A DNA stretch of 24,000 nt from Marinomonas sp. 2405UD68-3 (GCF_047525455.1 NZ_JBLIXL010000006.1:7373-31372); one strand, 5' to 3'; shown: positions 2,196-18,494, counted from the stretch's first letter. Notes: generated by a model from the letters alone, not told the origin. Program-made: numbers and translations.

Positions 2196-2243
2196 AACTT
2201 CTCACCACCTAAATATTATGCATCCAACTCAGTTAAACAAACA

Positions 2244-3329: not shown

Positions 3330-3352
3330 AACATCAGCCTAAGTAGATTTCG

Positions 3353-4015: not shown

Positions 4016-4034
4016 AATACCACCTAATCTCACC

Positions 4035-4820
4035 TTAGAGCTGCTGAGTAACAAAACCAAGCATAGAGTCTGCCGTCGAAATTACTTTAGAATTCATTTC
4101 GTACGCTCTTTGAGTTGTTATCAAATTAACCAGTTCTTCAACAGAATTCACGTTAGATGCTTCCAACATCCCTTGTCGCAGCCCCCCCAATGAATCCTCT
4201 CCAGGAACACCAACAATCGGCGCACCACTGGCATTGGTTTCGGTAAATAAGTTTTGACCAATAGCAGTAAGGCCCGATGAATTGATAAAGCCTGCAATAT
4301 TTATCGCTCCAACTTCTTCCGTATCAGTTTGACCCGCTCTTAACACCGAAACAACGCCATCATCACCTATAGTAATCTCAACTACGTCTGGATCAATCGT
4401 CACAGCAGGCTCAAGCAGTAAACCATTCGGAGTAACAATTTGCCCATCACTGTTTAACTGAAAACTACCATCTCTTGTATAACCAACAGTTCCGTCAGGT
4501 TGCAAAACTTGAAAAAAGCCGTCACCTTGAATTGCAACATCAAGCTGACGATCAGTCACATTATAGTCACCTTCTGAAAAATCTTTCTGCGTCGCTGTGA
4601 CTCGCACACCTGACCCAATCTGCAAACCCGACGGCAACTCATTGTTTTGAGAACTTAATCCTCCAGGTTGTCTCACCGTATGGTACAAAAGATCTTCAAA
4701 TACAGCCCTATCTTTCTTAAAGCCAACAGTAGATATGTTTGCCAAGTTATTTGAAACAACAGACAATTGCTTATCCATTGCACTTAAGCCTGTTCTACTA
4801 ATCCAGAGCGCTGAATGCAT
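4035..4820 (-). CDS. flgG: Flagellar distal rod protein FlgG
   Basis: 261 aa. N-terminus SNNLANISTVGFKKDR and C-terminus LEASNVNSVEELVNLITTQRAYEMNSKVI are typical FlgG. AAGAAGG sits upstream of ATG 4820. Confidence 0.95.
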   Translation of the reverse strand: MHSALWISRTGLSAMDKQLSVVSNNLANISTVGFKKDRAVFEDLLYHTVRQPGGLSSQNNELPSGLQIGSGVRVTATQKDFSEGDYNVTDRQLDVAIQGDGFFQVLQPDGTVGYTRDGSFQLNSDGQIVTPNGLLLEPAVTIDPDVVEITIGDDGVVSVLRAGQTDTEEVGAINIAGFINSSGLTAIGQNLFTETNASGAPIVGVPGEDSLGGLRQGMLEASNVNSVEELVNLITTQRAYEMNSKVISTADSMLGFVTQQL

Positions 4821-4892
4821 ACTATTACCTTCTTATTAATTTATCTAAAACAATACGGCGATAATTTATTTTGTGCTTATTTTGCTGCTATT

Positions 4893-5636
4893 TTAACCAT
4901 TACGCTGCAATATGCGTGCCGCAGCATTTTCATTATTTCTAACCGTATCCATAACTTTGATATTAAGCTCAAAACGCCGAGATAAATTCATTATATGAGT
5001 CATCTCTTCAACCGCATTAACATTACTGCCTTCGATAAACCCCGATATTATTTTTGCATCAGGGCTCTGATCAAATACTTGACCATCCTTCCCATATATC
5101 AAACCACTGCTCCCCTTTTCCAATTGCTTTGTATCCGGAGAAACCAGTTTAACTTGATTAATCACAGCAATTTCAGCCAAGGTTCCACCCTGAGGAACAA
5201 TCGAAATCGTACCGTCATCACCAAAATTAATCTGATCTAGAGGAGGCAGAAAAATTGGCCCATCATTCCCCATAACAGGCAATCCTGTTGCGGTTACAAG
5301 TTGGCCAGAGGATGTAATTTGAAGGTTACCCGCACGAGTATAAGACTCACGCCCTAATTCATCTTGAACGGTAATAAAACCTTTATCTTGGATGGCTATA
5401 TCCAGATTACGATCTGTTTGAATCAATCCACCCGATTCAAAACGCGTACCAGGATTTTCTGTCATTGCATACACACGAGAAGGAAAGTGCTCGCCATTAA
5501 TTTGCATTGAACGCGCTTGTTCAAAATCAGAACGAAAACCTGTTGTACTGACATTTGCCAAATTATTAGCATGGACCGTTTGAGCGTGCATAGTCTGTTT
5601 GCCACCGCTCATGGCAAGGTAGAGTGCTCTATCCAT
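4893..5636 (-). CDS. flgF: Flagellar proximal rod protein FlgF
   Basis: 247 aa. Axial-protein N-terminus (ANNLANVSTTGFR) and C-terminus (EGSNVNAVEEMTHIMNLSRRFE). Located between flgE and flgG. GAGGG upstream of the ATG. Confidence 0.9.
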   Translation of the reverse strand: MDRALYLAMSGGKQTMHAQTVHANNLANVSTTGFRSDFEQARSMQINGEHFPSRVYAMTENPGTRFESGGLIQTDRNLDIAIQDKGFITVQDELGRESYTRAGNLQITSSGQLVTATGLPVMGNDGPIFLPPLDQINFGDDGTISIVPQGGTLAEIAVINQVKLVSPDTKQLEKGSSGLIYGKDGQVFDQSPDAKIISGFIEGSNVNAVEEMTHIMNLSRRFELNIKVMDTVRNNENAAARILQRNG

Positions 5637-5653
5637 TCAACATACCCTCAAAA

Positions 5654-5703
5654 AAAAGAATCTATACAGACAATACAATAAGTATGCCAGTATAGATTCT
5701 TTT
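5654..5703 (-). terminator. Intrinsic terminator after flgE
   Basis: Perfect 11-bp inverted repeat AGAATCTATAC (5657-5667) / GTATAGATTCT (5690-5700), extendable by A:T pairs. On the minus-strand transcript it is followed by a run of 7-8 U (plus-strand A run 5650-5657). The loop is unusually long at 22 nt. Confidence 0.55.
5675..5689 (-). promoter_or_regulatory. Sigma54-like -24/-12 element upstream of flgF (imperfect)
   Basis: Minus strand reads TGGCAT-ACTTA-TTGT, against the consensus TGGCAC-N5-TTGC. Spacing is correct, but the -12 GC is GT. It lies about 38 nt upstream of the flgF ATG, inside the terminator loop. Confidence 0.3.
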
Positions 5704-5780
5704 AGAAAGGTAGCTTATTAATGCACATAGAACGACATCAAGCTAAAGAAGATCAATTAAAAAATCGATCTAAATAATCA

Positions 5781-7478
5781 TTATAAGTTAATAATCGTCT
5801 GAGTTACCGTGTTTTCTGTCTCTAGGGTTTTCGAGTTTGCCTGATAGTTCCTTTGAGCTTCGATCAACGCAACCAATTCAGAAGTTAAGTCCACATTCGA
5901 CTCCTCAAGAGCACCGCCTCGAATACTACCAAGCGTCCCAGTGTTCGCTCGGCCAACGTTTGCCGCCCCAGAGCTAGAGCTTGCCGCCCACGCCGTATTC
6001 CCCACAGGACTTAAGCCATCTGTATTGTCAAACGTTGCCAAAGCCACTTGCCCCAAAATTGCAGTTTGTTGATTAGTATAAGTTGCCAACAAAGAACCGT
6101 CCTCATCAAAAGACACTCCTTGCAACTCACCCGCAGCAAAACCATCCTGCTCAAATTCATCATTACTGTCCAATGCATATTGAGTTGAACCAGTCAGATC
6201 CACAGGAATCTCTGCAGTTGGATCAGTAGGATCAAAACCTGTAATAGAAAGCTGAACAGGAGACGATATTGCAAATGGTGGAAACCCTTCAAACGTTCCC
6301 GACAAATTACCCGACACATCAAACGTTACCACAGTATCTTCAGGTACAAAACGAGTTGGAAGCCCTGTAACGGGGTCATTAAACGTTTGCCTTCCATCAA
6401 CCGTTACTTTTAGTTCATACGTGTTTGCTTCGCCTTGCTGAATAAAATAATAACCAAGCGTATGGACATCTCCTAAAGCATCATAAATATTTTTTGTATT
6501 TCCATAATTGTAACTTGAAGGATCAGCTGGATCGAAAGCATTCCTACTAACATTCGATGGTTCAATCACATTTGCAACAACCAAGGAATCAGCAATGGCG
6601 ATACCATTTAAATTACCTGCCAAGGAAAAATTCGCCTGATTCAGAGCAGCAACATCTGAAACCTGAGGTAAATTTGTGCCAGAATAAAGAACCTGAGACC
6701 CACCAGGCTGTACCACCCCAAGAGCATCTCGATAGCCATCCTCACCATTAAAAGTAATAAATTGATCCGTAAGCCATTCCGCTCCACTATCATCAGTCGG
6801 AGAACCATCAACCGTCGCGTACACCTGATACGTGTTCGGCAACTCTGATTTAGCATAATAATAAGTGACTATATGATTTTGCGGTGGAACCTGACCATCA
6901 GCAACTGTCTGTGTTTGAGTATAATTAAACGTTTCAGGATCAGTCGGATCGAATACATCAACTATAAACGCAGGCACATCATCCGATCTAAAATCCAACT
7001 GGACCTCAATAGCCACCTCAGCAGTAGCCTGCGGCGCAATACGCTCTGTTGGTACAATAAGATCCTCAAGATTACCCCCGACAATACCATCTACAGCATT
7101 ATAACCTTGTACATTCGCGCCATCATTAGTAACCAAGAAACCCTCTTCGTCCAACTTAAAGTCACCAGCCCGAGTGTATATCTGAGTACCACCTTCATCC
7201 AAAACAAAAAAGCCATTCCCATCAACTGCCAAATCTAGGTTACTACCTGTATCCGAAATATTACCCGGGGCAAATTGCTGAGCCACATTATTGACACTGA
7301 CACCCGAACCAATGGCATTATTGCTCCCTGCACCAACCACACTGGTATTATAAAGATCACCAAACTCCACTCGGGAACGCTTAAAGCCAGTTGTATCGGA
7401 GTTTGCAATGTTATTACCTGTAGCGCTCAAAAAATCTGCAGAAGCCTTGATACCTGAAAGTGCTGTATTAAATCCCAT
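5781..7478 (-). CDS. flgE: Flagellar hook protein FlgE (enlarged, 565 aa)
   Basis: N-terminus MGFNTALSGIKA...NNIANSDTTGFKRS. C-terminus LEESNVDLTSELVALIEAQRNYQANSKT. GGAGGG upstream of ATG 7478. The central region is longer than the roughly 400-aa enteric hook protein. Confidence 0.9.
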   Translation of the reverse strand: MGFNTALSGIKASADFLSATGNNIANSDTTGFKRSRVEFGDLYNTSVVGAGSNNAIGSGVSVNNVAQQFAPGNISDTGSNLDLAVDGNGFFVLDEGGTQIYTRAGDFKLDEEGFLVTNDGANVQGYNAVDGIVGGNLEDLIVPTERIAPQATAEVAIEVQLDFRSDDVPAFIVDVFDPTDPETFNYTQTQTVADGQVPPQNHIVTYYYAKSELPNTYQVYATVDGSPTDDSGAEWLTDQFITFNGEDGYRDALGVVQPGGSQVLYSGTNLPQVSDVAALNQANFSLAGNLNGIAIADSLVVANVIEPSNVSRNAFDPADPSSYNYGNTKNIYDALGDVHTLGYYFIQQGEANTYELKVTVDGRQTFNDPVTGLPTRFVPEDTVVTFDVSGNLSGTFEGFPPFAISSPVQLSITGFDPTDPTAEIPVDLTGSTQYALDSNDEFEQDGFAAGELQGVSFDEDGSLLATYTNQQTAILGQVALATFDNTDGLSPVGNTAWAASSSSGAANVGRANTGTLGSIRGGALEESNVDLTSELVALIEAQRNYQANSKTLETENTVTQTIINL

Positions 7479-7490
7479 AACGCCCTCCGA

Positions 7491-8183
7491 TTAACCTATT
7501 ATTTCCAATCCACCTGTCAGGCTAATTTTGCCATGACCAGCTACATTAAGCTCAGTGCCATTCGCACCATTAATTGTGACCCCCTGAATTCGCGCAGGGA
7601 GCAGAGTACTTAAATCCAAAGTATCACCATCAAACGTTTTTCCAGTTGCTGAGAAAGTATAATTGCCAGACGGCAATGAATTGCCATCCTTATCTCTACC
7701 ATCCCATTTAAATTCTTTTGAGGTTAGTTCAAACTCATTAACCACACTCCCATCTGCATTAGATATTTTCAAGGTGGTCCCCTGAACATCGTCAGGTATG
7801 CCCACTCTCAAAGAAACATCACCACCCTCAACAAGCTCTGCCGAATTCTGAGCCACAAACACAGATTTACCCACCAGCGTTGACGCTCCAAGAGCCTGAC
7901 TGGATGTTAAAGACGCAGCCATAGCTTCGATACGCGTTGAAATGGTCGTCAACTGCTCAACCTGATTAAATTGAGACATTTGAGCAACCATGTCATTTGT
8001 ATCTTGAGGAGCAGTAGGGTCTTGATTTTTTAGCTGCTCAATATAAAGAGTCATAAAGACATCTTGATCCCCAATGTTCGCTTTTTCAACTGCAGTTTGC
8101 TCATCTACCCCAGAGCTTTTCTTAGCTTTATCGGTGCCATATTGAGCAATTAAACTACTAAAACCACTGTTTATTTCAGACAT
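7491..8183 (-). CDS. flgD: Flagellar hook capping/assembly protein FlgD
   Basis: 230 aa. FlgD N-terminal block FMTLYIEQLKNQDPTAPQD. C-terminal block KWDGRDKDGNSLPSGNYTF. Synteny between flgC and flgE. Confidence 0.9.
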   Translation of the reverse strand: MSEINSGFSSLIAQYGTDKAKKSSGVDEQTAVEKANIGDQDVFMTLYIEQLKNQDPTAPQDTNDMVAQMSQFNQVEQLTTISTRIEAMAASLTSSQALGASTLVGKSVFVAQNSAELVEGGDVSLRVGIPDDVQGTTLKISNADGSVVNEFELTSKEFKWDGRDKDGNSLPSGNYTFSATGKTFDGDTLDLSTLLPARIQGVTINGANGTELNVAGHGKISLTGGLEIIG

Positions 8184-8192
8184 ACATCACCC

Positions 8193-8642
8193 CTAAGACT
8201 GACCAAGTGTCAAGACTTTCTGCATCATGCTTTTAGCCGAATTCATAATCTCAACATTCGTCTGAAAAGACCGAGAAGCCGACATCATATCCGCCATCTC
8301 TTCGACTGGATTTACATTCGGGTAAAAAACAAAACCCGTTTCATTTGCCATAGGATGATCAGGCTCATATCTAGGCTGCAAAGGGGCGTCAGATTCAACA
8401 ATACCCTTTATTTGCACCCCAATCCCAGCACCCATCCCATCATCATTTACATTGTTCCAACCATGAGACTTCATAGACTCATCAAACATTTCAGCGAAAA
8501 CAGGCTTACGAGCACGATACGTCTGATCGACAGAGCTTGAAACACTGTCCACGTTCGCAATATTACTTGCTACTGTATTTAGACGAACAGACTGAGCACT
8601 CATTGCCGACCCAGCAATGGCAAAAATATTATTTAAAGACAT
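8193..8642 (-). CDS. flgC: Flagellar proximal rod protein FlgC
   Basis: 149 aa. RLNTVASNIANVDS at the N-terminus and VNPVEEMADMMSASRSFQTNVE at the C-terminus, typical FlgC. Confidence 0.95.
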   Translation of the reverse strand: MSLNNIFAIAGSAMSAQSVRLNTVASNIANVDSVSSSVDQTYRARKPVFAEMFDESMKSHGWNNVNDDGMGAGIGVQIKGIVESDAPLQPRYEPDHPMANETGFVFYPNVNPVEEMADMMSASRSFQTNVEIMNSAKSMMQKVLTLGQS

Positions 8643-8644
8643 TA

Positions 8645-9049
8645 CTAACGCCCTCCTGATAGAGCTTTTTTCATACCGCTAATTTTTCGATCCAGAAACA
8701 AAAAACTAGTATCGAACTGCAAAGAGTTTTGAGCAAACTCAGCTTGCTCTCTTTGCATATCAACCGTATTACCATCCAAAGATGGCTGACTAGGCGTACG
8801 ATACAAAAGAGCGTCCGCATCAATAGAAGTAAATCCTGAGGTCTGAGAAAGATGCTTTTCATTCGTTACGTCCATTGATAATTGACTGCGCATAGATTGA
8901 CTCATCATTGACTCAAAACTAATATCACGAGCTTTATAATTAGGTGTATCTGAATTGGCTATATTATTCGCCAATACAGCAGAGCGAGCACTTCGAAATA
9001 ACAACGCTTTATCATGCCCTGCAAGCGCACCTTCAAATGTAATCGCCAT
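8645..9049 (-). CDS. flgB: Flagellar proximal rod protein FlgB
   Basis: 134 aa. SAVLANNIANSDTPNYKARD block, plus DGNTVDMQREQAEFAQNSLQF at the C-terminus. It is the first gene after a 250-bp non-coding region. Confidence 0.95.
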   Translation of the reverse strand: MAITFEGALAGHDKALLFRSARSAVLANNIANSDTPNYKARDISFESMMSQSMRSQLSMDVTNEKHLSQTSGFTSIDADALLYRTPSQPSLDGNTVDMQREQAEFAQNSLQFDTSFLFLDRKISGMKKALSGGR

Positions 9050-9095
9050 CTACACACCCCAAAAATCAAACAATTAATAACCCTAATAGAAACTA

Positions 9096-9111
9096 AGCAA
9101 AATGGATGCCA
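9096..9111 (-). promoter_or_regulatory. Sigma54 -24/-12 promoter of the flgB operon
   Basis: Minus strand reads TGGCAT-CCATT-TTGCT, against the consensus TGGCAC-N5-TTGCW. The GG and GC are at the exact consensus spacing. The -12 element is about 45 nt upstream of the flgB ATG. Sigma54 control of flgB operons is established in Vibrio and Pseudomonas polar flagella. Confidence 0.65.
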
Positions 9112-9265
9112 AAAAAATAAAACATTGAATATCAATAAGATAGAAGAAATAGAAAACAGAGACGGCAAAAAGCGGCAATAAAACAACAAAGGCAAAAACA
9201 AAAAAGGAGTATTAAGAAGGTAATTAGCTAAAACACTAAAGAAAAGAAAACCAGAAGATAAAAAC

Positions 9266-9291
9266 AGGACCGACCCGCTAAAGAAGGTCCT
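9266..9291 (-). terminator. Possible intrinsic terminator after cheR
   Basis: AGGACC (9266-9271) pairs with GGTCCT (9286-9291), right after the cheR stop. On the minus-strand RNA it is followed by GUUUUUAUCUUCUGGUUUUC. The stem is short and the loop is 14 nt, so this is weak. Confidence 0.3.
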
Positions 9292-9300
9292 TTATACAAT

Positions 9301-10128
9301 TCATTTAACACGATAGACAATACCAGGGTGGCACTGAACAATTTCAAACATAGAAGACAGACCACTTAACGCTTCCGACCCCCCTAAAAACAAATACCCA
9401 CCAGGATTAAGTGATTTATGCATTCTGGTCAATATATCCAGCTTCAAGTTAGGGGAAAAATAAATAAGAACGTTTCGACAGAAAATAACATCGAACTTCC
9501 CTAGGCTTGAATATGAATCAATAAGGTTCAAATAACGAAAATCAACACGACTACGTATAGGCGCTTTTATTTTCCATGATCCAGAATCTAATTTATCAAA
9601 GTAGCGTTTTTTCAAATCATCACTGAGACCACGAACAATTGCAAGACTGTCGTATTCAGCTTGTTTAGCATGCTCCAAAATATTAGTACAAATGTCTGTA
9701 GCTATAATTTTCTCACCCGATCTTAACTTACCTGGACACGAGGACTTATATTCATCGATTACCATACTTATTGAGTATGGCTCTTGTCCAGTTGATGACG
9801 CGGCAGACCAAATCCTAAGAGGGTGACTAGAAAACTCCGGTAGAATTTTTTCTTTCAATATCTTAAAAGGATGAATATCACGAAACCACAAAGTCTCATT
9901 CGTTGTCATGGCATTAATCACTTCTTCTTCTAATGCCCCATCACTTCTTTCCAATAATGAAACTAGATCTTCTAACCTATCAATTTCTTCTCTTTCTAGC
10001 AGCTTACCTAACCGACTGGCAACTAAGTATTGTTTATTATCACTCAACATAATGCCACATACTTTTTCTAAGTATTGCTGAAACTTTGCATACCCCTGTG
10101 GCGTTATTACGTCTGTACTGCTCAACAT
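9301..10128 (-). CDS. cheR: Chemotaxis protein methyltransferase CheR
   Basis: 275 aa. CheR hallmarks ETLWFRD, IWSAASSTGQEPYSI and FDVIFCRNVLIYF. The cheV-cheR-flgB order matches Vibrio-type clusters. Confidence 0.9.
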   Translation of the reverse strand: MLSSTDVITPQGYAKFQQYLEKVCGIMLSDNKQYLVASRLGKLLEREEIDRLEDLVSLLERSDGALEEEVINAMTTNETLWFRDIHPFKILKEKILPEFSSHPLRIWSAASSTGQEPYSISMVIDEYKSSCPGKLRSGEKIIATDICTNILEHAKQAEYDSLAIVRGLSDDLKKRYFDKLDSGSWKIKAPIRSRVDFRYLNLIDSYSSLGKFDVIFCRNVLIYFSPNLKLDILTRMHKSLNPGGYLFLGGSEALSGLSSMFEIVQCHPGIVYRVK

Positions 10129-10184
10129 TATTGCTCCAAATAAGCATACTAATCAGGTTAAGTAAGTGCTCTATAACCGCCGAA

Positions 10185-11117
10185 CTATTCAGGCTCTTTT
10201 GCCTGTACGGTTTCTATTGCTAAACGAGCTAACTCATCAGGCTGGAATTTCGCAAGGAAACCATCGGCACCCACCTTTTTCACCATAGCCTCATTAAACA
10301 CACCACTTAATGAAGTGTGTAAAAGAATAAATAGATCACTCAATCTACTGTCATTCCGTATTTGAGTAGTTAAAGTGTAACCATCCATTTCAGGCATTTC
10401 GATATCTGATATAATCATTGAAAACTCTGTGGTTACATCACCGCCTTCATCAGCAATACTCAAAAGATACTCTAGAGCCTCACGACCATCACACAACACA
10501 GTCGTTGCAAAACCAACGTCTTCCATGCATCGTTTGATTTGTTTACGAGCCACACTCGAATCATCAACAATAAGAATATGGTACTGTTTCGCATTTTCCT
10601 GCACCGAGTCTGTGACAATTCCCACAGAGATGTCTTGTTTTGTCGGTGCTACTTCAGAAAGAATTTGCTCAACATCAATAATTTCTACCATCTCTTTTTC
10701 AACCTGACAAACAGCGGTCAAATAATTATCATGAGACAATCCTTTTGGAGGTGGCTGAATATCGCTCCAATTCATGTTAACAATTCGTTCGACTCCTTTG
10801 ACCAAAAAACCCTGAATTCGACGATTGTATTCTGTAATGATGACAAAGCATTCGCTTATATTTTCAATTGGTCGATCACCCGTAGCAAGGCCTAGATCAA
10901 GTATCGGGATTGTGCCTCCACGAATATGGGCAACACCTCGAACTACAGGACTACTGTGAGGCATCGTTGTCAGCTTTGGACACTGCAACACTTCTTTTAC
11001 TTTAAAAACGTTAATTCCGTATATTTGCTTCCCATTCAAACGAAACAACAACAACTCCAGACGGTTCTCACCAACAAGTTGAGTACGCTGGTTAACTGTA
11101 TCGAGAACTCCGGCCAT
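10185..11117 (-). CDS. cheV: Chemotaxis coupling protein CheV (CheW domain + receiver domain)
   Basis: I prefer ATG 11117 (AGGAGA upstream) over the ORF-track start at 11183. N-terminal CheW-like region (LELLLFRLNGKQIYGINVFKVKEV). C-terminal REC domain (ILIVDDSSVARKQI, ISDIEMPEMDG, LSDLFILLHTS). Confidence 0.9.
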   Translation of the reverse strand: MAGVLDTVNQRTQLVGENRLELLLFRLNGKQIYGINVFKVKEVLQCPKLTTMPHSSPVVRGVAHIRGGTIPILDLGLATGDRPIENISECFVIITEYNRRIQGFLVKGVERIVNMNWSDIQPPPKGLSHDNYLTAVCQVEKEMVEIIDVEQILSEVAPTKQDISVGIVTDSVQENAKQYHILIVDDSSVARKQIKRCMEDVGFATTVLCDGREALEYLLSIADEGGDVTTEFSMIISDIEMPEMDGYTLTTQIRNDSRLSDLFILLHTSLSGVFNEAMVKKVGADGFLAKFQPDELARLAIETVQAKEPE

Positions 11118-11174
11118 AACTAAATCTCCTATGAACCTTACTATGTCGCCAAGGCGAACCTCAAAAAAATATGT

Positions 11175-11203
11175 AAATATCACCCAATCATAGAGTGATA
11201 TTT
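11175..11203. promoter_or_regulatory. 9-bp perfect inverted repeat in the cheV/flgA divergent intergenic region
   Basis: AAATATCAC (11175-11183), an 11-nt spacer, then GTGATATTT (11195-11203). It lies between the divergent cheV and flgA starts. This geometry fits a dimeric regulator operator, but no known consensus is assigned. Confidence 0.3.
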
Positions 11204-11262
11204 GTTATTTTACTAATACCTTATGCAAGCTTAGAGTCAAAATCGCGAGATATTTATCTATT

Positions 11263-11958
11263 ATGAATAAAAATCTATTTTTTCGAGCATTAATACTATG
11301 CACTTTGCCTTCTGTTTGTCATGCAACCAATCTTCAAGACTATATTATTAATTTCATTGAACAAAATGAAAAACCTCGTTTAGCCACGCTTTATCCTAAG
11401 GCAGAAATACATATTGAATTAGGAAACCGAGCGAATTTTAGCTACTTGCCAAGTTGTCCAAAAGACAAACTGTCCATTTCTAATTCTCGCCGTGACGCTC
11501 AAAAAAGAACGACATACACAGTTCAATGCATTACACCAACATGGAAAATTTTTATTCCAGTGAATCAACAAATATTATTGAGCGCTTACACCGCAATTAC
11601 ACCCATATCAAGAAAACAACCAATAACAACAAACAACACTGACTTAATAAAGGTGGATATCACCAAATTACGAGGGGACATTTATAGTCAAGACAACCCA
11701 CCATATGGGCTTATTGCCTCACGAAACATTAATATCAACACAGTCATAACAGACAAAATAACAGAACTACCAATAATAATAAAAAAAGGCTCTCGAATCG
11801 TGATAAAAGCCCAAAGTAGCACTATCAGTATAAAGATGAACGGAGAATCACTTGAAAATGGGGTGTTAGGCCAGCAAATTCGAGTGAAAAACACCAGTTC
11901 TGGTCGAATTGTGTACGGAAAAGTTGTATCCAGCAACGAGATTCTTGTAAACTATTGA
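11263..11958 (+). CDS. flgA: Flagellar P-ring assembly chaperone FlgA
   Basis: 231 aa. Signal peptide MNKNLFFRALILCTLPSVCHA. C-terminal block GQQIRVKNTSSGRIVYGKVVS, typical of FlgA. Divergent from the flgB-side cluster and followed by flgM and flgN. Confidence 0.85.
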   Translation: MNKNLFFRALILCTLPSVCHATNLQDYIINFIEQNEKPRLATLYPKAEIHIELGNRANFSYLPSCPKDKLSISNSRRDAQKRTTYTVQCITPTWKIFIPVNQQILLSAYTAITPISRKQPITTNNTDLIKVDITKLRGDIYSQDNPPYGLIASRNININTVITDKITELPIIIKKGSRIVIKAQSSTISIKMNGESLENGVLGQQIRVKNTSSGRIVYGKVVSSNEILVNY

Positions 11959-12006
11959 AACGAGCAAAAAGAAATCGCCATTTAGAGTATTTTTTATAAA
12001 AATGTC

Positions 12007-12033
12007 TAAAGTTTATATATAGACGGTCGATAA
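12007..12033 (+). promoter_or_regulatory. Sigma28 (FliA) promoter of flgMN
   Basis: TAAAGTTT (12007-12014), an 11-nt spacer, then GTCGATAA (12026-12033). Against the consensus TAAAGTTT-N11-GCCGATAA this is 15 of 16 matches. It is 38 nt upstream of the flgM ATG. Confidence 0.8.
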
Positions 12034-12070
12034 GTGGAGTAGGTGGCAAAATTCAGAGCAGGTAAGCATC

Positions 12071-12385
12071 ATGGCAATTAATCTTGGTAATATCTTAAAT
12101 CAGTCAAATGTCAGTAAAAATGATCGTTTGCAAAAATCTTCAGGAGAAACTGAAGGTGTCAAATCAAAAGTACCTTCTAATAAAGAAACATTAGCAGAAG
12201 ACACAGTAAAGTTAAGTGGCACTGCTCAAGTATTAAAAAATCAGGAAGAGAAAATATCGAATCTTCCTGACATTGATATGGATAAAGTGGAAGAAATCAA
12301 ACAGGCTCTAGCCGCTGGCGAATATAAAATCGACACGCAAAAGCTAGCAAGCAACATGCAAAGTATTGATGCTCTATTTTCGTAA
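12071..12385 (+). CDS. flgM: Anti-sigma-28 factor FlgM
   Basis: 104 aa, hydrophilic. C-terminal FlgM block DMDKVEEIKQALAAGEYKIDTQKLASNM. Synteny flgA-flgM-flgN. Confidence 0.85.
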   Translation: MAINLGNILNQSNVSKNDRLQKSSGETEGVKSKVPSNKETLAEDTVKLSGTAQVLKNQEEKISNLPDIDMDKVEEIKQALAAGEYKIDTQKLASNMQSIDALFS

Positions 12386-12423
12386 TAAAAATTAGCCTTA
12401 ATTAAGGAAAAGTAATTCTTCTT

Positions 12424-12900
12424 ATGGTACCTGTTGAACCTATATTTGCTCGCAACAAAGAACTACTCGATTCATTATCAACACTACTAGATAATGAGCG
12501 AGACGCACTTGCCAAACTTAGTTCTGAAGCCATATTAGAAATTGCAGCACAAAAACGTGCAATTTTAGATGAATTAGACGCTTTAAATACTAAAAGACAT
12601 TCGTTATTGATAAAATTTGGAATCATTAATCAAAAGCAACCAGAAGAAGGCCAGTTTAAGGAGTGGTTACATACTCAACATAAGGATGTGAAATTAATCG
12701 AGCTCGTTAGCCTATGCGAAAAGCTCCTAGAAACCTGTAAAGAAAAAAATCACACTAACGAGCAAATACTGAATATCGCTCAAAAGCGTAACAAATCTTT
12801 CCTAGAAATACTCAAGGGTTCAGACAAAAAAAGTCGCATATACACGGCAAAAGGCAGCACTAGACCAATCAATAGTAAACACACGATTGGCAAAGCATAA
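12424..12900 (+). CDS. flgN: Flagellar export chaperone FlgN
   Basis: 158 aa, helical. N-terminal region (LLDSLSTLLDNERDALAKLSSEAILEIAAQKRAILDEL) resembles the FlgN family. Located immediately after flgM. Start-codon choice is uncertain. Confidence 0.75.
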   Translation: MVPVEPIFARNKELLDSLSTLLDNERDALAKLSSEAILEIAAQKRAILDELDALNTKRHSLLIKFGIINQKQPEEGQFKEWLHTQHKDVKLIELVSLCEKLLETCKEKNHTNEQILNIAQKRNKSFLEILKGSDKKSRIYTAKGSTRPINSKHTIGKA

Positions 12901-13073: not shown

Positions 13074-13149
13074 GTCTCCATAGGTAAACAGGATATACCT
13101 GCCGCCTCCTAAGCGGCTATTCCAGGTTCGAGTCCTGGTGGGGGCACCA
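13074..13149 (+). tRNA. tRNA-Arg (anticodon CCU)
   Basis: Folded by hand. Acceptor stem GTCTCCA/TGGGGGC with two G-U pairs. D arm GGTA...TACC with GG in the loop. Anticodon stem GCCGC/GCGGC with loop CTCCTAA (anticodon CCT). T arm CCAGG-TTCGAGT-CCTGG. Encoded CCA. Close to E. coli argW in layout. A T run follows. Confidence 0.9.
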
Positions 13150-13242
13150 TCTTTTTTACAAAATTTTTTTATATGATTGAACTAGTTAATAGAGACTGGG
13201 TCTGACGTTATATAGTTAAAAAATGGTTTAGTTTATATATTT

Positions 13243-13812
13243 ATGCTCGATACCTTACTCAGTTGGTCGCACAACCCCTACATCATTATGCTAGGGATCA
13301 TTTTTATCTCCTACTTATTAGAAGATGCCGCGATTGTTGGTGCAGCGCTTTTGTCTGTTGAGGGAACCTTACCTATTCATTTAGGTATACTTGCTGTATT
13401 TATTGGCATTGCGTCTGGAGACATCATTTTATTTTACATTGGCCGATATAGCCATAAATTTAAATGGGTCCAGCTACGCCTAGCTCATCCAAAAGTAATA
13501 ACAATCCAAAAAAAATTACAAAAAAATGCGTTTTTAAATGTATTTCTTATTCGGTTTTTACCCGGCCTGAGAGGTACGGGGTATCTAGTATGTGGAGCAT
13601 TGCATATTAAACCCATGACATTTTTCTTCTCTGTTGGGCTAGCCACATTACTCTGGTCAATTGTAGTCTATACCTCTGTTTTTGCTTTGGGCGATGCACT
13701 ATGGTTAGAAGGCGCTTTGTGGCGTTGGGTCCTAGCGCCTCTTTTAATTGTTGTTATTATGCTAATAAATAAAGTAATTAATACTTATCTTCTGGAGGAA
13801 CGCTCCGTTTGA
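13243..13812 (+). CDS. DedA / VTT (SNARE-associated) family inner-membrane protein
   Basis: 189 aa, multi-pass hydrophobic. DedA signatures GIASGDIILFYIGRY and FLIRFLPGLRGTGYLVCG. First gene of the five-gene operon. Confidence 0.8.
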   Translation: MLDTLLSWSHNPYIIMLGIIFISYLLEDAAIVGAALLSVEGTLPIHLGILAVFIGIASGDIILFYIGRYSHKFKWVQLRLAHPKVITIQKKLQKNAFLNVFLIRFLPGLRGTGYLVCGALHIKPMTFFFSVGLATLLWSIVVYTSVFALGDALWLEGALWRWVLAPLLIVVIMLINKVINTYLLEERSV

Positions 13813-14933
13813 ACATTCGAAAAGTCCCCTTGCCGCAAGGTATAAATGAAGGCATGCCACCTCTTGAACTTACAGAGAAGCCTGTTTCTTTTTTTGAATT
13901 CTGGCCTGCTTGGGCGATGTATGCTCCAGTCATTATTCAATGTGTTGGATTGAGTATAAAATACAGAAGTATCGGTTTGCCGTTAATTTCAAACCCTAAA
14001 ATACCATTGAGTGGCATGGTCGGTGAATCTAAAGCCGACATATTAGATCAACCCAAAAAAGAAGTTCGATCTTTTCTCTGTGAATATGTGACTTCTACAA
14101 AAAAAGAGAATCTGACATCGAAAGAAAGCACAAAGCTCTTGCTTGATCAATATTTTGACAAAGGCCTGTCCTTACCTGCTGTAGCGAAACCAGATCTTGG
14201 ATGCAGAGGTGTTGGTGTTCGATTAATTGAAAACGAACAAGAGCTATCAGATTACATTGAGCTTTTTCCTGAAAATGCACGTTTTTTACTGCAAGAAAAA
14301 TCCAAGTACCAAGCCGAAGCAGGAATTTTTTATATTCGCTACCCTGGAGAGAGAAAAGGAAAAATTACCTCCATCACACTAAAGTACACCCCCTGGGTTG
14401 TTGGTGATGGTGTACAAACACTTAAAGAGCTTATTTTAGCAGACCCACGAGCAGGGCTTCTTTCTCACATTTACCTACCAAGACACAAAGAAAATCATGA
14501 CAAAGTGATCCCTGAAGGAGAGGCTGTACGAATTGCCTTTGCAGGCAGCCACAGTGGCGGTAGTATATTTCGTGACGGTAATCGCTACATTACTGAAGCA
14601 CTCACACAGTCATTAGATACTTTTTTTGATGGTATGCCAGAGTTTCATTTTGGTCGTCTCGATGTCAAGTTTAAACATATTGATGAACTCATGGACGGTA
14701 AAAACTTTCAAATCCTTGAAATCAACGGTGCAAGCAGTGAAGCCACTCATATATGGGATAGCAAAACAAAATTTCCAGATGCAATTAAGGCATTATTATT
14801 TCAATATCGAACTTTATTCGAAATTGGACATCTAAATCGAAAAGCGGGTTACCAAACACCGTCTTTGCTATCATTGTATCGCGCTTGGCGAGAAGAAAAG
14901 AGTTGGGTAGTTGATTACCCATCAATGGATTAA
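13809..14933 (+). CDS. ATP-grasp fold carboxylate-amine ligase with hydrophobic N-terminal segment
   Basis: 374 aa. TTG start at 13809 overlaps the upstream stop, with GGAGGA (13794-13799) 9 nt upstream. The alternative start is ATG 13854. Hydrophobic stretch FFEFWPAWAMYAPVIIQCVGLSI. ATP-grasp-like blocks AKPDLGCRGVGVRLI and FQILEINGASSEATHIWD. Confidence 0.7.
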   Translation: MNIRKVPLPQGINEGMPPLELTEKPVSFFEFWPAWAMYAPVIIQCVGLSIKYRSIGLPLISNPKIPLSGMVGESKADILDQPKKEVRSFLCEYVTSTKKENLTSKESTKLLLDQYFDKGLSLPAVAKPDLGCRGVGVRLIENEQELSDYIELFPENARFLLQEKSKYQAEAGIFYIRYPGERKGKITSITLKYTPWVVGDGVQTLKELILADPRAGLLSHIYLPRHKENHDKVIPEGEAVRIAFAGSHSGGSIFRDGNRYITEALTQSLDTFFDGMPEFHFGRLDVKFKHIDELMDGKNFQILEINGASSEATHIWDSKTKFPDAIKALLFQYRTLFEIGHLNRKAGYQTPSLLSLYRAWREEKSWVVDYPSMD

Positions 14934-14936
14934 TAT

Positions 14937-16742
14937 ATGAAAACGACATCAGAGTTCAGCCCTTTTTTACTTCCTAGAACAAAATCTATGAAGTGGTTTG
15001 CTCCGATATTAGAGAATATAACGGGGCTAAAACGACTGCATCAGCATTACTTAATGCGCCCTAAAAACTCAGATACCAACACCTTTTTAACCCACACTCT
15101 TGACGCCCTTGGTATCAGTTTCCATTCATCTGGAGAACCTCTAAACACAATACCTAGCAGCGGGCCTTTACTTATTGTCGCAAATCACCCTTTAGGGGGC
15201 GTAGAAGGCGTCATTCTCGCTAAAATGCTTATGGAATATCGTCCTGATATTAAAGTGATGGCCAACCTCTTCCTTAAACGCATTCCAGAATTAGACAACT
15301 TATTTATTGGTGTTGATGTCTTCGAAACAAAGGAAGCCCGTAGAACCAATATGAAAGCAATTAAGGAAGCAGGGCAACACCTAACAACAGGGGGAGCATT
15401 GCTTATTTTCCCCGCAGGTGAAGTATCTACATTTGATGAAAACAGCAACTACCTTCAAGATAAAGAATGGGGGAGGCTTGTAGGTCGATTAGCACGCTCC
15501 AGTAAAGCAACATGTTTGCCCATTTTTATAGAAGGTCAAAACTCCCCTTTCTTTTACAAAGTAGGGAAAATTCATCCTCGATTCAGAACTGCTTTACTTG
15601 GCCGCGAATTATTAAATAAAAAGAACAAATCAATTGGAGTGCGCTGTGGTTCAGTCATAGAGCCCAATGAAATCGCGAAAATGGACAACGATCAAGACAT
15701 CACAAACTATTTACGCTTGAACACCTATTTATTAGAGCAAAATCACTTAAAACAAAGTGGTACAACACTCACAGGATCCTATCGACTACTCACGCCTATT
15801 TTAAAGGACATCAAAACAGATATTTTGAATCAAGAGATTCAAACTCTACCCGCTACGTCTATCCTTGTAGAACAAAAACAGTTCAATGTCTTTATCGCAA
15901 GCGCCCATGAAATCCCTAATATTTTAAAGCAGATCGGTGTCATCCGAGAACGTAACTTTAGAGAGGTGGGTGAAGGTACAGGAAGAGAAATTGATATTGA
16001 TCAGTTTGATGATGTGTACTTACACCTCTTTATTTGGGATAAAGATCAACAGGCAATTGCAGGGGCTTACAGGCTAGGTCTAGTAGATTCTCTTGTACAA
16101 AAGTCAGGCATTCACGGTTTATACAGTCGCACCCTCTTTAAGTTTGACCAAGCATTCTTAGACACACAACCAAACGCAATAGAAATGGGACGATCTGTTA
16201 TTGATAAACCTTATCAAAAAAACCTGTCTCCTCTTATGCTTCTATGGAAAGGCATTGCCACTTTTATTTCTCGCAATCCCAAATACACGACGCTTTTTGG
16301 CCCAGTCAGCATCAGTGGTGAATACAAAGAGCTGACACATCAATTAATCGTCAGCAGCCTTACCGCCCATTTTTACGATTCAAACCGATCAAAGCTAGTG
16401 GAAGCAACTCACCCTATTCCAATTGCGAGTAAACCTTTTTGGTCTGTAAACTTACTTTCAGGGCTTGCCGACATCCAACTTTTATCAAACGTTGTTTCTC
16501 GCCTTGAAAACGGGGCAGGCGTCCCTGTATTAATTCGCCAATATTTATCTCTTCAGGGCCGTTTTATTAGTTTCAATGTTGATCCAGACTTTAATCAAAC
16601 AGTAGATGGGCTTATCACTGTTGATCTAACCCAACTATCGGAAAGAGTATTAGGGAAATACATGGGCAGAGAATCCGCAGAAAGCTATCTAGAGTTCCAT
16701 AACACAAACACACAACGGCCTGACACTCAGGAGGAGACATGA
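14937..16742 (+). CDS. OlsF-like bifunctional acyltransferase (N-terminal PlsC-type O-acyltransferase + C-terminal OlsB-type amino-acid N-acyltransferase)
   Basis: 601 aa. N-terminal blocks LLIVANHPLGGVEGV and LLIFPAGEVS resemble glycerolipid acyltransferase motifs. C-terminal blocks RERNFREVGEGTG, DIDQFDDVYLHLFIWD and IAGAYRLG resemble OlsB/GNAT-type lyso-ornithine-lipid synthases. The domain order matches that reported for OlsF. Confidence 0.75.
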   Translation: MKTTSEFSPFLLPRTKSMKWFAPILENITGLKRLHQHYLMRPKNSDTNTFLTHTLDALGISFHSSGEPLNTIPSSGPLLIVANHPLGGVEGVILAKMLMEYRPDIKVMANLFLKRIPELDNLFIGVDVFETKEARRTNMKAIKEAGQHLTTGGALLIFPAGEVSTFDENSNYLQDKEWGRLVGRLARSSKATCLPIFIEGQNSPFFYKVGKIHPRFRTALLGRELLNKKNKSIGVRCGSVIEPNEIAKMDNDQDITNYLRLNTYLLEQNHLKQSGTTLTGSYRLLTPILKDIKTDILNQEIQTLPATSILVEQKQFNVFIASAHEIPNILKQIGVIRERNFREVGEGTGREIDIDQFDDVYLHLFIWDKDQQAIAGAYRLGLVDSLVQKSGIHGLYSRTLFKFDQAFLDTQPNAIEMGRSVIDKPYQKNLSPLMLLWKGIATFISRNPKYTTLFGPVSISGEYKELTHQLIVSSLTAHFYDSNRSKLVEATHPIPIASKPFWSVNLLSGLADIQLLSNVVSRLENGAGVPVLIRQYLSLQGRFISFNVDPDFNQTVDGLITVDLTQLSERVLGKYMGRESAESYLEFHNTNTQRPDTQEET

Positions 16743-17272
16743 TACCTGTTATAAAAGGTAACATAGAAACCATTAATCAAGCTTTGGCTTTACTTGACAC
16801 AATTGATAACAAAGCGTACTGCCATATAAGTGCACCTTACATTAATAGCAGTATAGGTCAACATGTTCGACATATTATCGATAATTATTTAGTTATCGTG
16901 AATGGCGTGTCCCAAGCACACATTAACTATAATATTCGACGTCGTGGCGCGGCTGTTGAATCCTGTATTGAAACAGCAAAAAAAGAATTAAACGACATTC
17001 AGACTTGGCTACACACTATAGAGAGTAACGCTCTAATGACTTCAGTGACCATTTTTTCAGAAGTTTGTTTAGAACAGGAACAATCAGACCATTTAGTATC
17101 AAGCCTTCATAGGGAGCTCATATTTGTTGCTAGCCATTGCATACATCATATGGCACTTATTGGCGTTGCCGTGAAATTACAAAATATAGAAACACCAAAA
17201 CATTTCGGCTTGGCTCCAGCGACCGCGACTTATGTACGTCAGCAAGAGTCTCAAGGTGCAGCTAACTCCTAA
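16739..17272 (+). CDS. DinB-fold (DinB_2-like) putative metalloenzyme
   Basis: 177 aa. ATG overlaps the upstream TGA (ATGA at 16739-16742), with AGGAGGAG immediately upstream. His-containing helices SIGQHVRHIIDNY and FVASHCIHHMALIG fit the DinB four-helix-bundle His triad. Assigned from motifs only. Confidence 0.6.
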   Translation: MIPVIKGNIETINQALALLDTIDNKAYCHISAPYINSSIGQHVRHIIDNYLVIVNGVSQAHINYNIRRRGAAVESCIETAKKELNDIQTWLHTIESNALMTSVTIFSEVCLEQEQSDHLVSSLHRELIFVASHCIHHMALIGVAVKLQNIETPKHFGLAPATATYVRQQESQGAANS

Positions 17273-17274
17273 TT

Positions 17275-18015
17275 ATGTGTACGATAAGCTGGCTATACAA
17301 TCATCAAGGTTACCAAATATTTTTCAATAGAGACGAACAACGCCGACGCGAAAAAGCACACCCTCCTGAAGTATTTCAATCGAAGCTAAATAACAGCCAC
17401 TACATTATGCCTGTTGACCCTCAAGGGAATGGATCTTGGATGGGAGTAACCTCTGACGGCGTATCCATATGTTTACTCAACTATTATCAAGGCAACTTAC
17501 CTAAAGGGCAGCTCACCAGTCGAGGAATGCTCGTTAGAAACTTACTTGAATTAACGTCTTATAAAAAAGTAGAACAATACCTAAACACTATGGATTGTAT
17601 GCAATATGCACCATTTACATTGCTTATTTTTTCCCGATCTAAAAGCCATCCTTTAAGCGTATGTTGGGATGGGCAGACAACGCTTAAAAACATTCAGGCC
17701 ACCTCGCCATTTACTTCTTCTGGTGTCGACTTCCCTTCCGTTTCAAATCACCGACAAGAAAGTTATGCAAAACTTCTAAAGCATAATAATGGAACAGTAG
17801 ACGATCATCTATTACTTAAACTCCACAGATCTCACTTACCTGAAAGATCAATGAACTCTGTTTGTATGCACAGAGGGGATGCAAAAACCGTCAGCTTAAG
17901 TCACATCAAGATCGATCAACACCAAGCGGATTACACGTATTGGGATGGGTCACCTTGCGCAACGGCAAAAGTTCATAAACAAAGATGTAAAATTTCAGAA
18001 CGAATAGAAGACTAA
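17275..18015 (+). CDS. NRDE family protein (bacterial TANGO2 homologue, Cys-nucleophile Ntn-like fold)
   Basis: 246 aa. Begins MCTISW...IFFNRDE, carrying the family-defining Cys2 and NRDE motif. Starts 2 nt after the DinB stop. Confidence 0.8.
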   Translation: MCTISWLYNHQGYQIFFNRDEQRRREKAHPPEVFQSKLNNSHYIMPVDPQGNGSWMGVTSDGVSICLLNYYQGNLPKGQLTSRGMLVRNLLELTSYKKVEQYLNTMDCMQYAPFTLLIFSRSKSHPLSVCWDGQTTLKNIQATSPFTSSGVDFPSVSNHRQESYAKLLKHNNGTVDDHLLLKLHRSHLPERSMNSVCMHRGDAKTVSLSHIKIDQHQADYTYWDGSPCATAKVHKQRCKISERIED

Positions 18016-18060
18016 CACTTCGCCCTGAATCTTTTACAAGACCCAAGGCGAAATAAAAGC

Positions 18061-18474
18061 TTACTCAGCGTCAATAACAGTAAAACTATGGGTAATTTCA
18101 ACACCACCGCGTTCAAGCATTAAAGACGCGGAGCAATACTCTTCAGCCGATAACTTCACAGCACGCTCAACTATTTTTTCTTTTAACTTACGGCCTGTTA
18201 CTACAAACGTAATATGAATTTTGGTAAAAACAGCAGGTATAGCATCCGACCTTTCTGCATCAATTTCAGCGACACAAGAAACCACATCTTGACGCGACTT
18301 TTGTAAAATTTTCACCACATCATAAGACGTACAACCACCAAGACCAGCTAAGATCAACTCCATTGGTCGAGCGCCTTTTTCTTGATTACCATCGATTTCT
18401 ATTTGAAAACCAGAACCCGTTTGTGCCGTAAAATGCACATCTTCTTGCCAAGCCACACTTGCTTTCATATTCAA
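18061..18474 (-). CDS. OsmC/Ohr-family peroxiredoxin-like protein
   Basis: 137 aa. Two conserved Cys contexts, GLGGCTSYDV and SAEEYCSASLML, typical of the OsmC family. Convergent with the five-gene operon. Confidence 0.8.
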   Translation of the reverse strand: MNMKASVAWQEDVHFTAQTGSGFQIEIDGNQEKGARPMELILAGLGGCTSYDVVKILQKSRQDVVSCVAEIDAERSDAIPAVFTKIHITFVVTGRKLKEKIVERAVKLSAEEYCSASLMLERGGVEITHSFTVIDAE

Positions 18475-18494
18475 TTCTCTACTCTCAAATTTAA

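Follow-up and report, generated by a model that had tools for sequence, protein, structure and literature searches.

An OlsF-type aminolipid synthase operon of Marinomonas with DedA, ATP-grasp, DinB-fold and TANGO2-family partners, and its recurrence across phyla

What do four genes of other protein families do in one operon with an aminolipid synthase of a type described as sufficient alone? The question is raised by a 24,000-nt stretch of DNA from Marinomonas sp. 2405UD68-3 (the window, hereafter), in which the locus studied occupies positions 13243–18015 of the plus strand and contains five packed open reading frames (ORF1 to ORF5; Table 1). They encode, in this order, a DedA/VTT-family membrane protein, an ATP-grasp ligase, an OlsF-type synthase, a DinB-fold protein and a TANGO2/NRDE-family protein. 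A preliminary description, made from the sequence of the window, had assigned these five families, correctly in every case as judged by profile and fold searches, and had proposed that the genes share a pathway for a modified aminolipid. The four accessory genes travel with OlsF, or with split OlsB and OlsA, in Gammaproteobacteria, in Acidobacteria-type and in other lineages. That the partners act on the aminolipid itself is, in our estimate, about an even bet (roughly 0.5), and any specific chemistry attributed to them is considerably less probable.

Conservation of the gene set beside aminolipid synthases

The coordinates and junctions of the five ORFs were reproduced by reading the sequence. 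The TTG start of ORF2 (13809), preceded by a GGAGGA Shine-Dalgarno sequence about 9 nt upstream, overlaps the TGA stop of ORF1 (13810–13812) as TTGA; ORF3 and ORF4 overlap as ATGA at 16739–16742, with AGGAGG upstream of the overlap; and the gaps between ORF2 and ORF3 and between ORF4 and ORF5 are 3 nt and 2 nt, respectively. This arrangement is kept in relatives: of 79 species loci, 45 have an ATG, TTG or GTG that begins one base before the stop codon of the DedA gene and overlaps it (xTGA), and of 76 loci of species genomes, 57 have DinB and TANGO2 spaced by −1 to +3 nt. Since the packing is conserved across species loci, it goes beyond chance, and the five ORFs are one translationally coupled operon, as had been supposed at the outset.

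Concerning the neighbourhood of these genes in other organisms, a survey with one genome per species gave 507 genomes encoding the ATP-grasp protein, and the best 80 of the 507 were annotated with the five proteins of the window. They belong to Marinomonas, Vibrio, Enterovibrio, Grimontia, Photobacterium, Aliivibrio and Endozoicomonas, with a Psychromonadaceae metagenome-assembled genome (MAG) and a groundwater gammaproteobacterium. Such a survey had been proposed in the preliminary description, and it showed that the set is kept: adjacent to the ATP-grasp gene were DedA in 79, DinB in 79, TANGO2 in 76 and OlsF in 70 of the 80 genomes. Three gene orders occur among them. That of the window is restricted to one Marinomonas clade; elsewhere in the genus the order is that of Vibrio, which ends in OlsF. 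Most of the Vibrio-type, Endozoicomonas and Psychromonadaceae clusters add two genes that are absent from the window and had been overlooked: one for a signal-peptide YHS protein with a conserved GGYCAW motif (NCBIfam 'YHS domain-containing (seleno)protein') and one for a DoxX/MauE-like membrane protein of about 148 aa. The Marinomonas loci with the order of the window (L004–L008 and L074) share their flanks, flgN/tRNA on one side and osmC/trpC on the other; those with the Vibrio-type order and YHS/DoxX (L042, L046, L059, L060 and L068) are at a different locus. The existence of these two groups suggests two cluster lineages, or horizontal transfer.

The ATP-grasp family was also searched for among 1.8 billion representative proteins. 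Proteins of about 520–590 aa and of 800–935 aa were common among the best 150 representatives listed, and the Pfam scans of ten long proteins revealed VTT::ATP-grasp and alpha/beta-hydrolase::VTT::ATP-grasp fusions. A second search, seeded with one fusion, gave members from Sumerlaeota, Hydrogenedentes, Acidobacteria and Rhodothermales. A metagenome scan provided 80 loci, with G+C contents of 35–74%, of which 38 had triple fusions, 35 had double fusions and 7 were unfused, DedA::ATP-grasp being fused in 73 of the 80. DedA and ATP-grasp are a fixed pair, forming one polypeptide in many phyla, and this fusion speaks for their working together. This part of the shared-pathway idea has gained in strength, whereas no modified lipid is known that would give substance to the rest of it.

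Sixteen metagenome loci had flanks of 4 kb or more on each side, and 15 of them contained OlsB/OlsA-like genes, OlsB and OlsA being the top models for the split genes. The order in one acidobacterial contig is OlsB-like, OlsA-like, a 176-aa ORF (DinB-like by phmmer), TANGO2, VTT::ATP-grasp and DoxX, and that in another contig is OlsB-like, OlsA-like and abhydrolase::VTT::ATP-grasp. In the soil/acidobacterial-type loci L088, L102, L159 and L085, the DinB-like and TANGO2-like genes overlap by 13 nt, compared with the −1 to +3 nt of Vibrionaceae. The gene set is linked to an aminolipid synthase whether this is fused (OlsF) or split (OlsBA), and the linkage survives rearrangement.

The five proteins and their relatives

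The N-terminal part of ORF3 matched Pfam Acyltransf_2 (8.1e-18, residues 50–268), Acyltransferase (9e-6) and the GlsA model (3.6e-30), while Pfam Acetyltransf_5 (1.8e-23, residues 336–437) and the OlsB and GlsB models matched the C-terminal half. The best NCBIfam match was OlsF (NF052615), over the full length and with 401.9 bits, below the equivalog cutoff of 620. The OlsF architecture that had been read from the sequence was upheld, with PlsC-type and Acetyltransf_5 domains in one polypeptide; it is the architecture of Serratia proteamaculans OlsF and of VC0489 and VCA0646 of Vibrio cholerae, and ORF3 aligns with VCA0646 over the full length. VCA0646 makes ornithine lipid (OL) in Escherichia coli, from free ornithine and without ATP-grasp (PMC12186959), and its score for NF052615 is likewise below the cutoff (439.6 vs. 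620). Since this proven OL synthase also fails the cutoff, the score of ORF3 is not evidence against OL synthase activity; the cutoff excludes a true OL synthase of the ORF3/VCA0646 subclade. Both proteins share 46% identity over 577 aa, and ORF3 is the positional ortholog of VCA0646, the orthology resting on synteny. It seems reasonable to interpret that ORF3 makes OL as well, production having been shown only for its 46%-identical counterpart.

ORF1 matched Pfam VTT_dom (E = 5.5e-16; 59.6 bits vs. a cutoff of 33.9) and displayed four to five hydrophobic segments, as a multi-pass DedA/VTT protein. It was also considered as a UptA-type transporter of undecaprenyl phosphate (C55-P), a candidate rejected with 17.9 bits for NCBIfam NF052604 vs. 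a cutoff of 250.

A Marinomonas sp. 2405UD68-3 protein in NCBI has the same sequence as ORF2 (100% identity). ORF2 gave no match in Pfam, weak RimK and cyanophycin-synthetase matches in NCBIfam, and CphA2 and CphA1 as the best matches in a profile search of the PDB. Its AlphaFold2 model, with a predicted local distance difference test score (pLDDT) of 86.6, retrieved in Foldseek the G domain of CphA1/2, GshAB and Ddl as top matches (E 1e-10 to 1e-7, probability 1.00). The residues K127-P-D, E304 and N306 are invariant, with K127, E304 and N306 being so in both alignments made. Judging from the modelled fold, ORF2 is an ATP-grasp ligase which, with the ATP-binding Lys and the Mg2+-binding E-x-N kept, is predicted to be catalytically intact. 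It has the same fold and ATP/Mg2+ motif residues as the G domain of cyanophycin synthetase, GshAB and Ddl, but only 10–18% identity to them in the Foldseek alignments. The ORF2 family differs from them also in its fusion or coupling to DedA and in an N-terminal segment of its own with a putative interfacial helix. This family-specific segment spans the first 110 residues or so and contains a conserved hydrophobic helix at about residues 29–52, with the motif FEFWP..Y.PV. The helix is moderately hydrophobic, with a Kyte-Doolittle maximum of 1.29, below the transmembrane level.

The family comprises thousands of proteins, and NCBI and UniRef give many of the members listed the name 'D-alanine--D-alanine ligase'. 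Together with the Ddl structures found by Foldseek, this name would fit a cell-wall Ddl with an incidental adjacency to OlsF, a reading to which we attach hardly any weight. No Ddl model appeared among the NCBIfam matches of ORF2, no curated full-length match was obtained, and the Ddl match in the PDB was short and weak (E = 0.022 over 47 residues), weaker than those of cyanophycin synthetases; on these grounds the identification as Ddl was rejected. Moreover, the N-terminal 110 residues look like a membrane-associating segment specific to the family, fusions of the ATP-grasp protein to DedA occur in many phyla, and the neighbours are lipid genes, not mur/ddl genes. The database label is probably a propagated misannotation.

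The nearest structural relatives of ORF2 also suggest another function, as Ddl, GshAB and CphA use small amino-acid or peptide substrates. The ATP-grasp enzyme could join two small molecules (e.g., an amino acid and ornithine, in the way of Ddl or GshB), with OlsF/OlsB then N-acylating the product to a dipeptide-type aminolipid; dipeptide aminolipids are known (flavolipin/Lipid 654). However, VCA0646 takes free ornithine and yields OL without ATP-grasp, and the apparent association of ATP-grasp with the membrane and its fusion to DedA would be needless for a soluble precursor. A head-group precursor route is considered improbable.

ORF4 was marginal for Pfam DinB_2 (24.5 bits vs. a cutoff of 24.8). 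Its AlphaFold2 model (pLDDT 93.7) matched DinB/YfiT proteins, mycothiol S-transferase and BstA in Foldseek. All 81 cluster homologs have H42, H45, H133, H136, H137, R44, R125 and E126 (100% conserved), and these residues are also invariant in a cross-phylum alignment of 20 sequences. ORF4 is, as modelled, a four-helix bundle of the DinB/YfiT superfamily with a putative His metal site.

ORF5 matched Pfam TANGO2 (PF05742; 7e-14, 53 bits vs. a cutoff of 22.6) and, weakly, a C45 proenzyme (acyltransferase/hydrolase) in NCBIfam; its sequence match to human TANGO2 is weak (E = 0.1). In agreement with the Cys-nucleophile NRDE protein recognized in the preliminary description, conservation across 78 cluster homologs is 100% for Cys2 and at least 99% for N18-R19-D20-E21. 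These residues correspond to the cysteine N-terminal nucleophile (Cys-Ntn) active site proposed for human TANGO2, formed by Cys2 and Asn25-Arg26-Asp27-Glu28 (PMC13044924), and the putative active site of ORF5 is intact. It is by the TANGO2 match, Cys2 and NRDE that ORF5 resembles the TANGO2/Cys-Ntn hydrolases (NAAA, acid ceramidase, bile-salt hydrolase and isopenicillin N acyltransferase). The bacterial protein HtpA (SO0126) is a heme-linked member of the TANGO2 family, with a gene neighbourhood different from that of ORF5; we know of no member of this family with an established activity. The DinB-fold and TANGO2/NRDE proteins are a second fixed pair, with their putative catalytic residues kept, and the tight coupling of their genes suggests that they form a complex.

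The relatives of ORF5 bring up turnover or remodelling of the aminolipid as an explanation. By cleavage or exchange, the TANGO2-like protein would act on the fatty acid that is amide-linked in OL or lyso-OL, the alpha/beta-hydrolase, in clusters that have one, would remove the ester-linked chain, ATP-grasp would re-ligate a fatty acid or an amino acid, and DedA would move the intermediates. In its favour, the closest enzymatic analogues of TANGO2 either hydrolyse fatty-acid amides (NAAA, acid ceramidase, bile-salt hydrolase) or exchange acyl groups (isopenicillin N acyltransferase), human TANGO2 binds acyl-CoA, and ORF5 shows the weak C45 match; OL is also acted on by two planctomycete enzymes, the alpha/beta-hydrolase OlsI and the ATP-dependent amide ligase OlsH. 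We give little credit to this explanation, as N-acylation is already accounted for by OlsB/OlsF, which makes a second amide ligase redundant, and no OL-degrading activity has been described in these organisms. Besides, we know of no ATP-grasp enzyme that activates long-chain fatty acids.

Surroundings of the operon

The features of the locus are collected in Table 1. The tRNA-Arg(CCT) gene sits between flgN and ORF1, tRNA genes being common integration sites. A scan for the sigma-70 consensus over positions 12300–18700 gave 11 sites vs. 17.6 expected from shuffles, which is no enrichment, and no match within the leader; as sigma-70-like sites are fewer than in shuffles and the leader has none, no promoter can be assigned. 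An Rfam search matched the tRNA alone, with no riboswitch or leader RNA. At the other end, a peroxiredoxin-family, OsmC-like gene is convergent to the operon and shares with it the hairpin that follows ORF5. This hairpin is likely a bidirectional terminator common to both, and the downstream boundary of the operon. The position of the OsmC-like gene is kept in related Marinomonas loci (L004–L008 and L074), as a minus-strand ORF of 134–136 aa.

The rest of the upstream flank is ordinary context, formed by a flagellar and chemotaxis block with flgJ, flgI, flgH, flgG, flgF, flgE, a cheR-type methyltransferase gene and a CheV-like gene on the minus strand, and flgA, flgM and flgN on the plus strand. 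In general terms, the operon is flanked by flagellar genes (flgA/M/N, flgB-J, cheR/cheV-like) upstream and by trpC/trpD downstream.

Table 1. Coordinates of the features of the window and of selected loci of other genomes
Feature	Sequence	Position	Strand	Description
ORF1	Window	13243..13812	+	189-aa DedA/VTT-family integral membrane protein
ORF2	Window	13809..14933	+	374-aa ATP-grasp carboxylate-amine ligase (predicted)
ORF3	Window	14937..16742	+	601-aa OlsF-type bifunctional aminolipid synthase (predicted); N-terminal O-acyltransferase, C-terminal OlsB-like N-acyltransferase
ORF4	Window	16739..17272	+	177-aa DinB/YfiT-fold four-helix-bundle protein (predicted), conserved histidines
ORF5	Window	17275..18015	+	246-aa TANGO2/NRDE-family protein, Cys-Ntn-hydrolase-like
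tRNA-Arg(CCT)	Window	13074..13149	+	Rfam tRNA, 53 bits; ARAGORN anticodon CCT; upstream operon boundary, outside the pathway
AT-rich leader	Window	13150..13242	+	Intergenic, 93 nt; sole room for an operon promoter
Hairpin	Window	18016..18055		From terminator-like scan; 18-pair stem, G+C-rich; between ORF5 and the convergent OsmC-like gene
OsmC-like gene	Window	18061..18474	-	Peroxiredoxin family
Flagellar/chemotaxis block	Window	1185..12900		Ordinary context
YHS/DoxX genes	L001	8525..8971		Example of the additional genes
YHS/DoxX genes	L045	12434..13337		Example of the additional genes
YHS/DoxX genes	L009	11108..12043		Example of the additional genes
ATP-grasp, alpha/beta-hydrolase, VTT	L171	7950..10641		Paracoccus denitrificans PD1222, plasmid 1
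ATP-grasp locus	L168	6066..9329, 11278..12294		Ferruginibacter MAG
ATP-grasp locus	L087	6702..10970		Rhodanobacter MAG

Concerning more distant homologs, plasmid 1 of Paracoccus denitrificans PD1222, a tractable organism, carries the unfused counterpart of the triple fusion found in metagenomes (L171). In the Ferruginibacter MAG, which belongs to Bacteroidota (L168), a gene about 2 kb downstream encodes an LPG_synthase_TM (MprF-type) domain and may be a different lipid-translocating partner. A distant, unfused ATP-grasp homolog of the Rhodanobacter MAG (L087) is accompanied by YqcI_YcgG, DUF1989 and a DcsG_N protein; it possibly represents a different subfamily in a small-molecule biosynthetic context.

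Possible roles of the accessory proteins

In V. cholerae, the ORF2 homolog belongs to a cluster in which VTT, ATP-grasp, DinB-like, TANGO2, YHS and OlsF correspond to vca0651–vca0646. The preliminary description had found the partners in no known aminolipid gene set, and had overlooked the vca0646–0649 operon, which has been the subject of two studies. When salinity is low, V. cholerae needs VCA0646 to make OL, and the synthase has a part in its tolerance of polymyxin (PMC12186959). The vca0646–0649 operon is activated by HapR and controlled by quorum sensing, the functions of the four genes being stated as unknown by the authors; the co-overexpression of vca0646 and vca0647 produces cell death that does not depend on type VI secretion, an effect that neither gene has alone (bioRxiv 10.1101/2024.09.23.614608). 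The gene vca0647 is the YHS gene of the cluster. Neither paper (PMC12186959; bioRxiv 10.1101/2024.09.23.614608) mentions vca0650/0651, i.e., ATP-grasp and DedA, or gives functions for vca0647–0649.

Compared to the window, the V. cholerae cluster (vca0646–0649 plus vca0650–0651) contains the same VTT, ATP-grasp, DinB-like, TANGO2 and OlsF families, but OlsF is last instead of third, a secreted YHS protein (vca0647) is present that the window does not encode, and there are an 89-nt gap and separate promoters in place of full translational coupling. The cell death observed in V. cholerae raised the idea of abortive infection or anti-phage defence, which was dropped when PADLOC gave no match for any of the five proteins.

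There are also lipid data for Marinomonas. Marinomonas phaeophyticola 15G1-11 has an unidentified ninhydrin-positive aminolipid among its major polar lipids, and M. rhodophyticola, described alongside it, has no such aminolipid (PMC11165874). The former strain carries the same five-gene operon (L005). This aminolipid, the polymyxin phenotype and the genetic interaction of OlsF with vca0647 in V. cholerae are circumstantial support for an action of the partners on the lipid.

Were the partners to act on the aminolipid, the following sequence of events could be envisaged. OlsF (ORF3) would build OL at the cytoplasmic face of the inner membrane. The ATP-grasp enzyme, kept at the membrane through its N-terminal helix and DedA, would activate a carboxylate as acyl-phosphate and then create an amide linkage on the lipid's head group, the likeliest target being the free alpha-carboxylate of ornithine. 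DedA would move OL or modified OL across the membrane, with a logic like that of MprF. The Cys-Ntn TANGO2-like protein and the His-metal DinB-like protein would hydrolyse, transfer or tailor an amide or a thiol-linked group on the same lipid; in a variant based on the analogy with Ntn amidotransferases and MurT/GatD, the Cys-Ntn protein would supply or remove the amide group. The most elaborate version of this proposal, a phylum-spanning machine that modifies and translocates the aminolipid head group, in which ATP-grasp amidates the ornithine alpha-carboxylate, DedA is a flippase and the TANGO2 homolog is an N-acyl-amide hydrolase or transacylase, is put forward tentatively and is unlikely to hold in its entirety. 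If it were true, ATP-grasp would yield a cerilipin-like lipid, or a simple amide by which zwitterionic OL becomes cationic, and the TANGO2 family would have its first physiological substrate class.

Three known systems can be compared with this proposal. The ATP-dependent transfer of taurine to the carboxyl of OL in Gluconobacter cerinus (giving cerilipin) is the only known reaction of the type, with no assigned gene (PMC12971839). The taurine:OL ligase, which requires ATP and forms an amide on the OL alpha-carboxylate, displays the chemistry expected of an OL-linked ATP-grasp, a comparison made by reaction only, with no sequence. As a lead to cerilipin, the plasmids of Komagataeibacter were uninformative: they encode a 33%-identical ATP-grasp beside a methyltransferase and an iron redox enzyme, not adjacent to ols or DedA. 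The planctomycete pair OlsH/OlsI combines an ATP-dependent amide ligase with an alpha/beta-hydrolase acting on OL, and in 38 of the 80 metagenome loci an abhydrolase is fused to DedA::ATP-grasp. However, OlsH is not an ATP-grasp but an adenylating enzyme of the GH3 type, and, in contrast to the OlsH pathway, the presence of OlsB/OlsF here means that the first acylation does not require the ligase. Finally, MprF (lysyl-phosphatidylglycerol synthase/flippase) offers an analogy of logic only, a cytoplasmic head-group enzyme joined to a translocation domain, with a product that lowers the susceptibility to cationic peptides, as OL does with polymyxin. It shows no homology to the proteins studied here, it uses aminoacyl-tRNA rather than an ATP-grasp, its flippase is not DedA/VTT, and its substrate is phosphatidylglycerol rather than an aminolipid.

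Several observations weigh against an action of the partners on the lipid. Organisms that carry the cluster have yielded no report of a modified OL, the sequence of the ATP-grasp enzyme does not reveal its substrate, and the DinB-fold enzymes of known function are thiol S-transferases, a fact that a head-group model leaves unexplained. VCA0646 is served by a low-salt-inducible promoter of its own, the upstream one being weak and not salt-responsive; alone in E. coli it yields plain OL, and the single lipid species reported in V. cholerae, by one-dimensional thin-layer chromatography, was OL (PMC12186959). In addition, vca0648 and vca0649 are dispensable for the overexpression phenotype (bioRxiv 10.1101/2024.09.23.614608). 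The accessory genes also occur apart from ols genes. Salinivibrio has VTT, ATP-grasp, DinB and NRDE only, with OlsF not adjacent, and about seven Vibrio/Marinomonas genomes have no OlsF nearby in the approximately 10 kb downstream of the ATP-grasp gene. Bacteroidota contigs contain YHS, DoxX, DinB, TANGO2 and ATP-grasp (35–36% identity, N-terminal helix motif included) without DedA or Ols at the locus; Azospirillum carries the DedA::ATP-grasp fusion alone; and in P. denitrificans PD1222 ATP-grasp, alpha/beta-hydrolase and VTT adjoin, VTT being on the opposite strand, with no adjacent ols. ATP-grasp is the hub of two modules, one with DedA, with or without the hydrolase, and the other with DinB/TANGO2, with or without DoxX and YHS.

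The occurrence of ATP-grasp and DinB (with TANGO2, YHS and DoxX) without Ols or DedA in Bacteroidota, and of the four accessory genes without OlsF in Salinivibrio and several Vibrio, favours a different explanation. ATP-grasp, DinB and TANGO2, plus DoxX and YHS in clusters that have them, would form a chemically independent stress module that makes or handles a small thiol or redox compound, or detoxifies an electrophile or a metal, at the membrane, with OL synthesis merely co-regulated in an envelope-stress response. It would agree with the mycothiol and bacillithiol S-transferases being the characterised relatives of the DinB fold, with the likeness of ATP-grasp to the ligase domain of glutathione synthetase GshAB, with the match of the YHS partner to a '(seleno)protein' model, with the DoxX/MauE-like partner, which we take to belong to redox-associated membrane families, and with the separate promoter of VCA0646. 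Nevertheless, OlsBA/OlsF are part of the same-strand, contiguous cluster in 15 of the 16 long metagenome loci and in 70 of the 80 genomes, in spite of shuffled gene orders and differing G+C content, and such persistence over phyla is unusual for mere co-regulation. The fusion of ATP-grasp to the lipid-handling DedA and to the alpha/beta-hydrolase points to a lipid substrate, and the five genes of the window are translationally coupled. An independent stress module is regarded as rather unlikely.

With respect to what was already known, OlsF and its role had been described, and the V. cholerae operon had been noticed with its partner genes left unexplained. Literature searches gave no paper linking DedA with ATP-grasp, or Ols with TANGO2, DinB or DoxX. 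In the literature searched, three points appear to be unreported: the multi-phylum partnership of an aminolipid synthase with DedA, ATP-grasp, a DinB-fold protein and a TANGO2 homolog; the DedA::ATP-grasp fusions, with or without alpha/beta-hydrolase; and the finding that OlsBA and OlsF alike have these partners. A review on OL contains no account of how it crosses the inner membrane, and names no gene for an ATP-dependent modification of its head group (PMC12971839). The gene set with DedA::ATP-grasp at its centre is a testable candidate for both, OL translocation and ATP-dependent head-group modification, in hosts as accessible to experiment as V. cholerae, Paracoccus and Marinomonas. It also provides a context for the puzzling vca0646–0649 operon, with its cell death on overexpression.

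Human TANGO2 is a metabolic disease protein with no agreed function and a debated substrate. A bacterial homolog with its putative catalytic residues intact, encoded in an operon with a lipid N-/O-acyltransferase, constitutes a tractable system for its study. As for the lipid, OL is made by about half of the sequenced bacterial species, and has roles when phosphate is limiting, in the tolerance of stress and in resistance to peptides of the polymyxin type; the recurrence of the gene set from V. cholerae to soil Acidobacteria points to an undescribed step in the modification or the movement of this phosphorus-free lipid.

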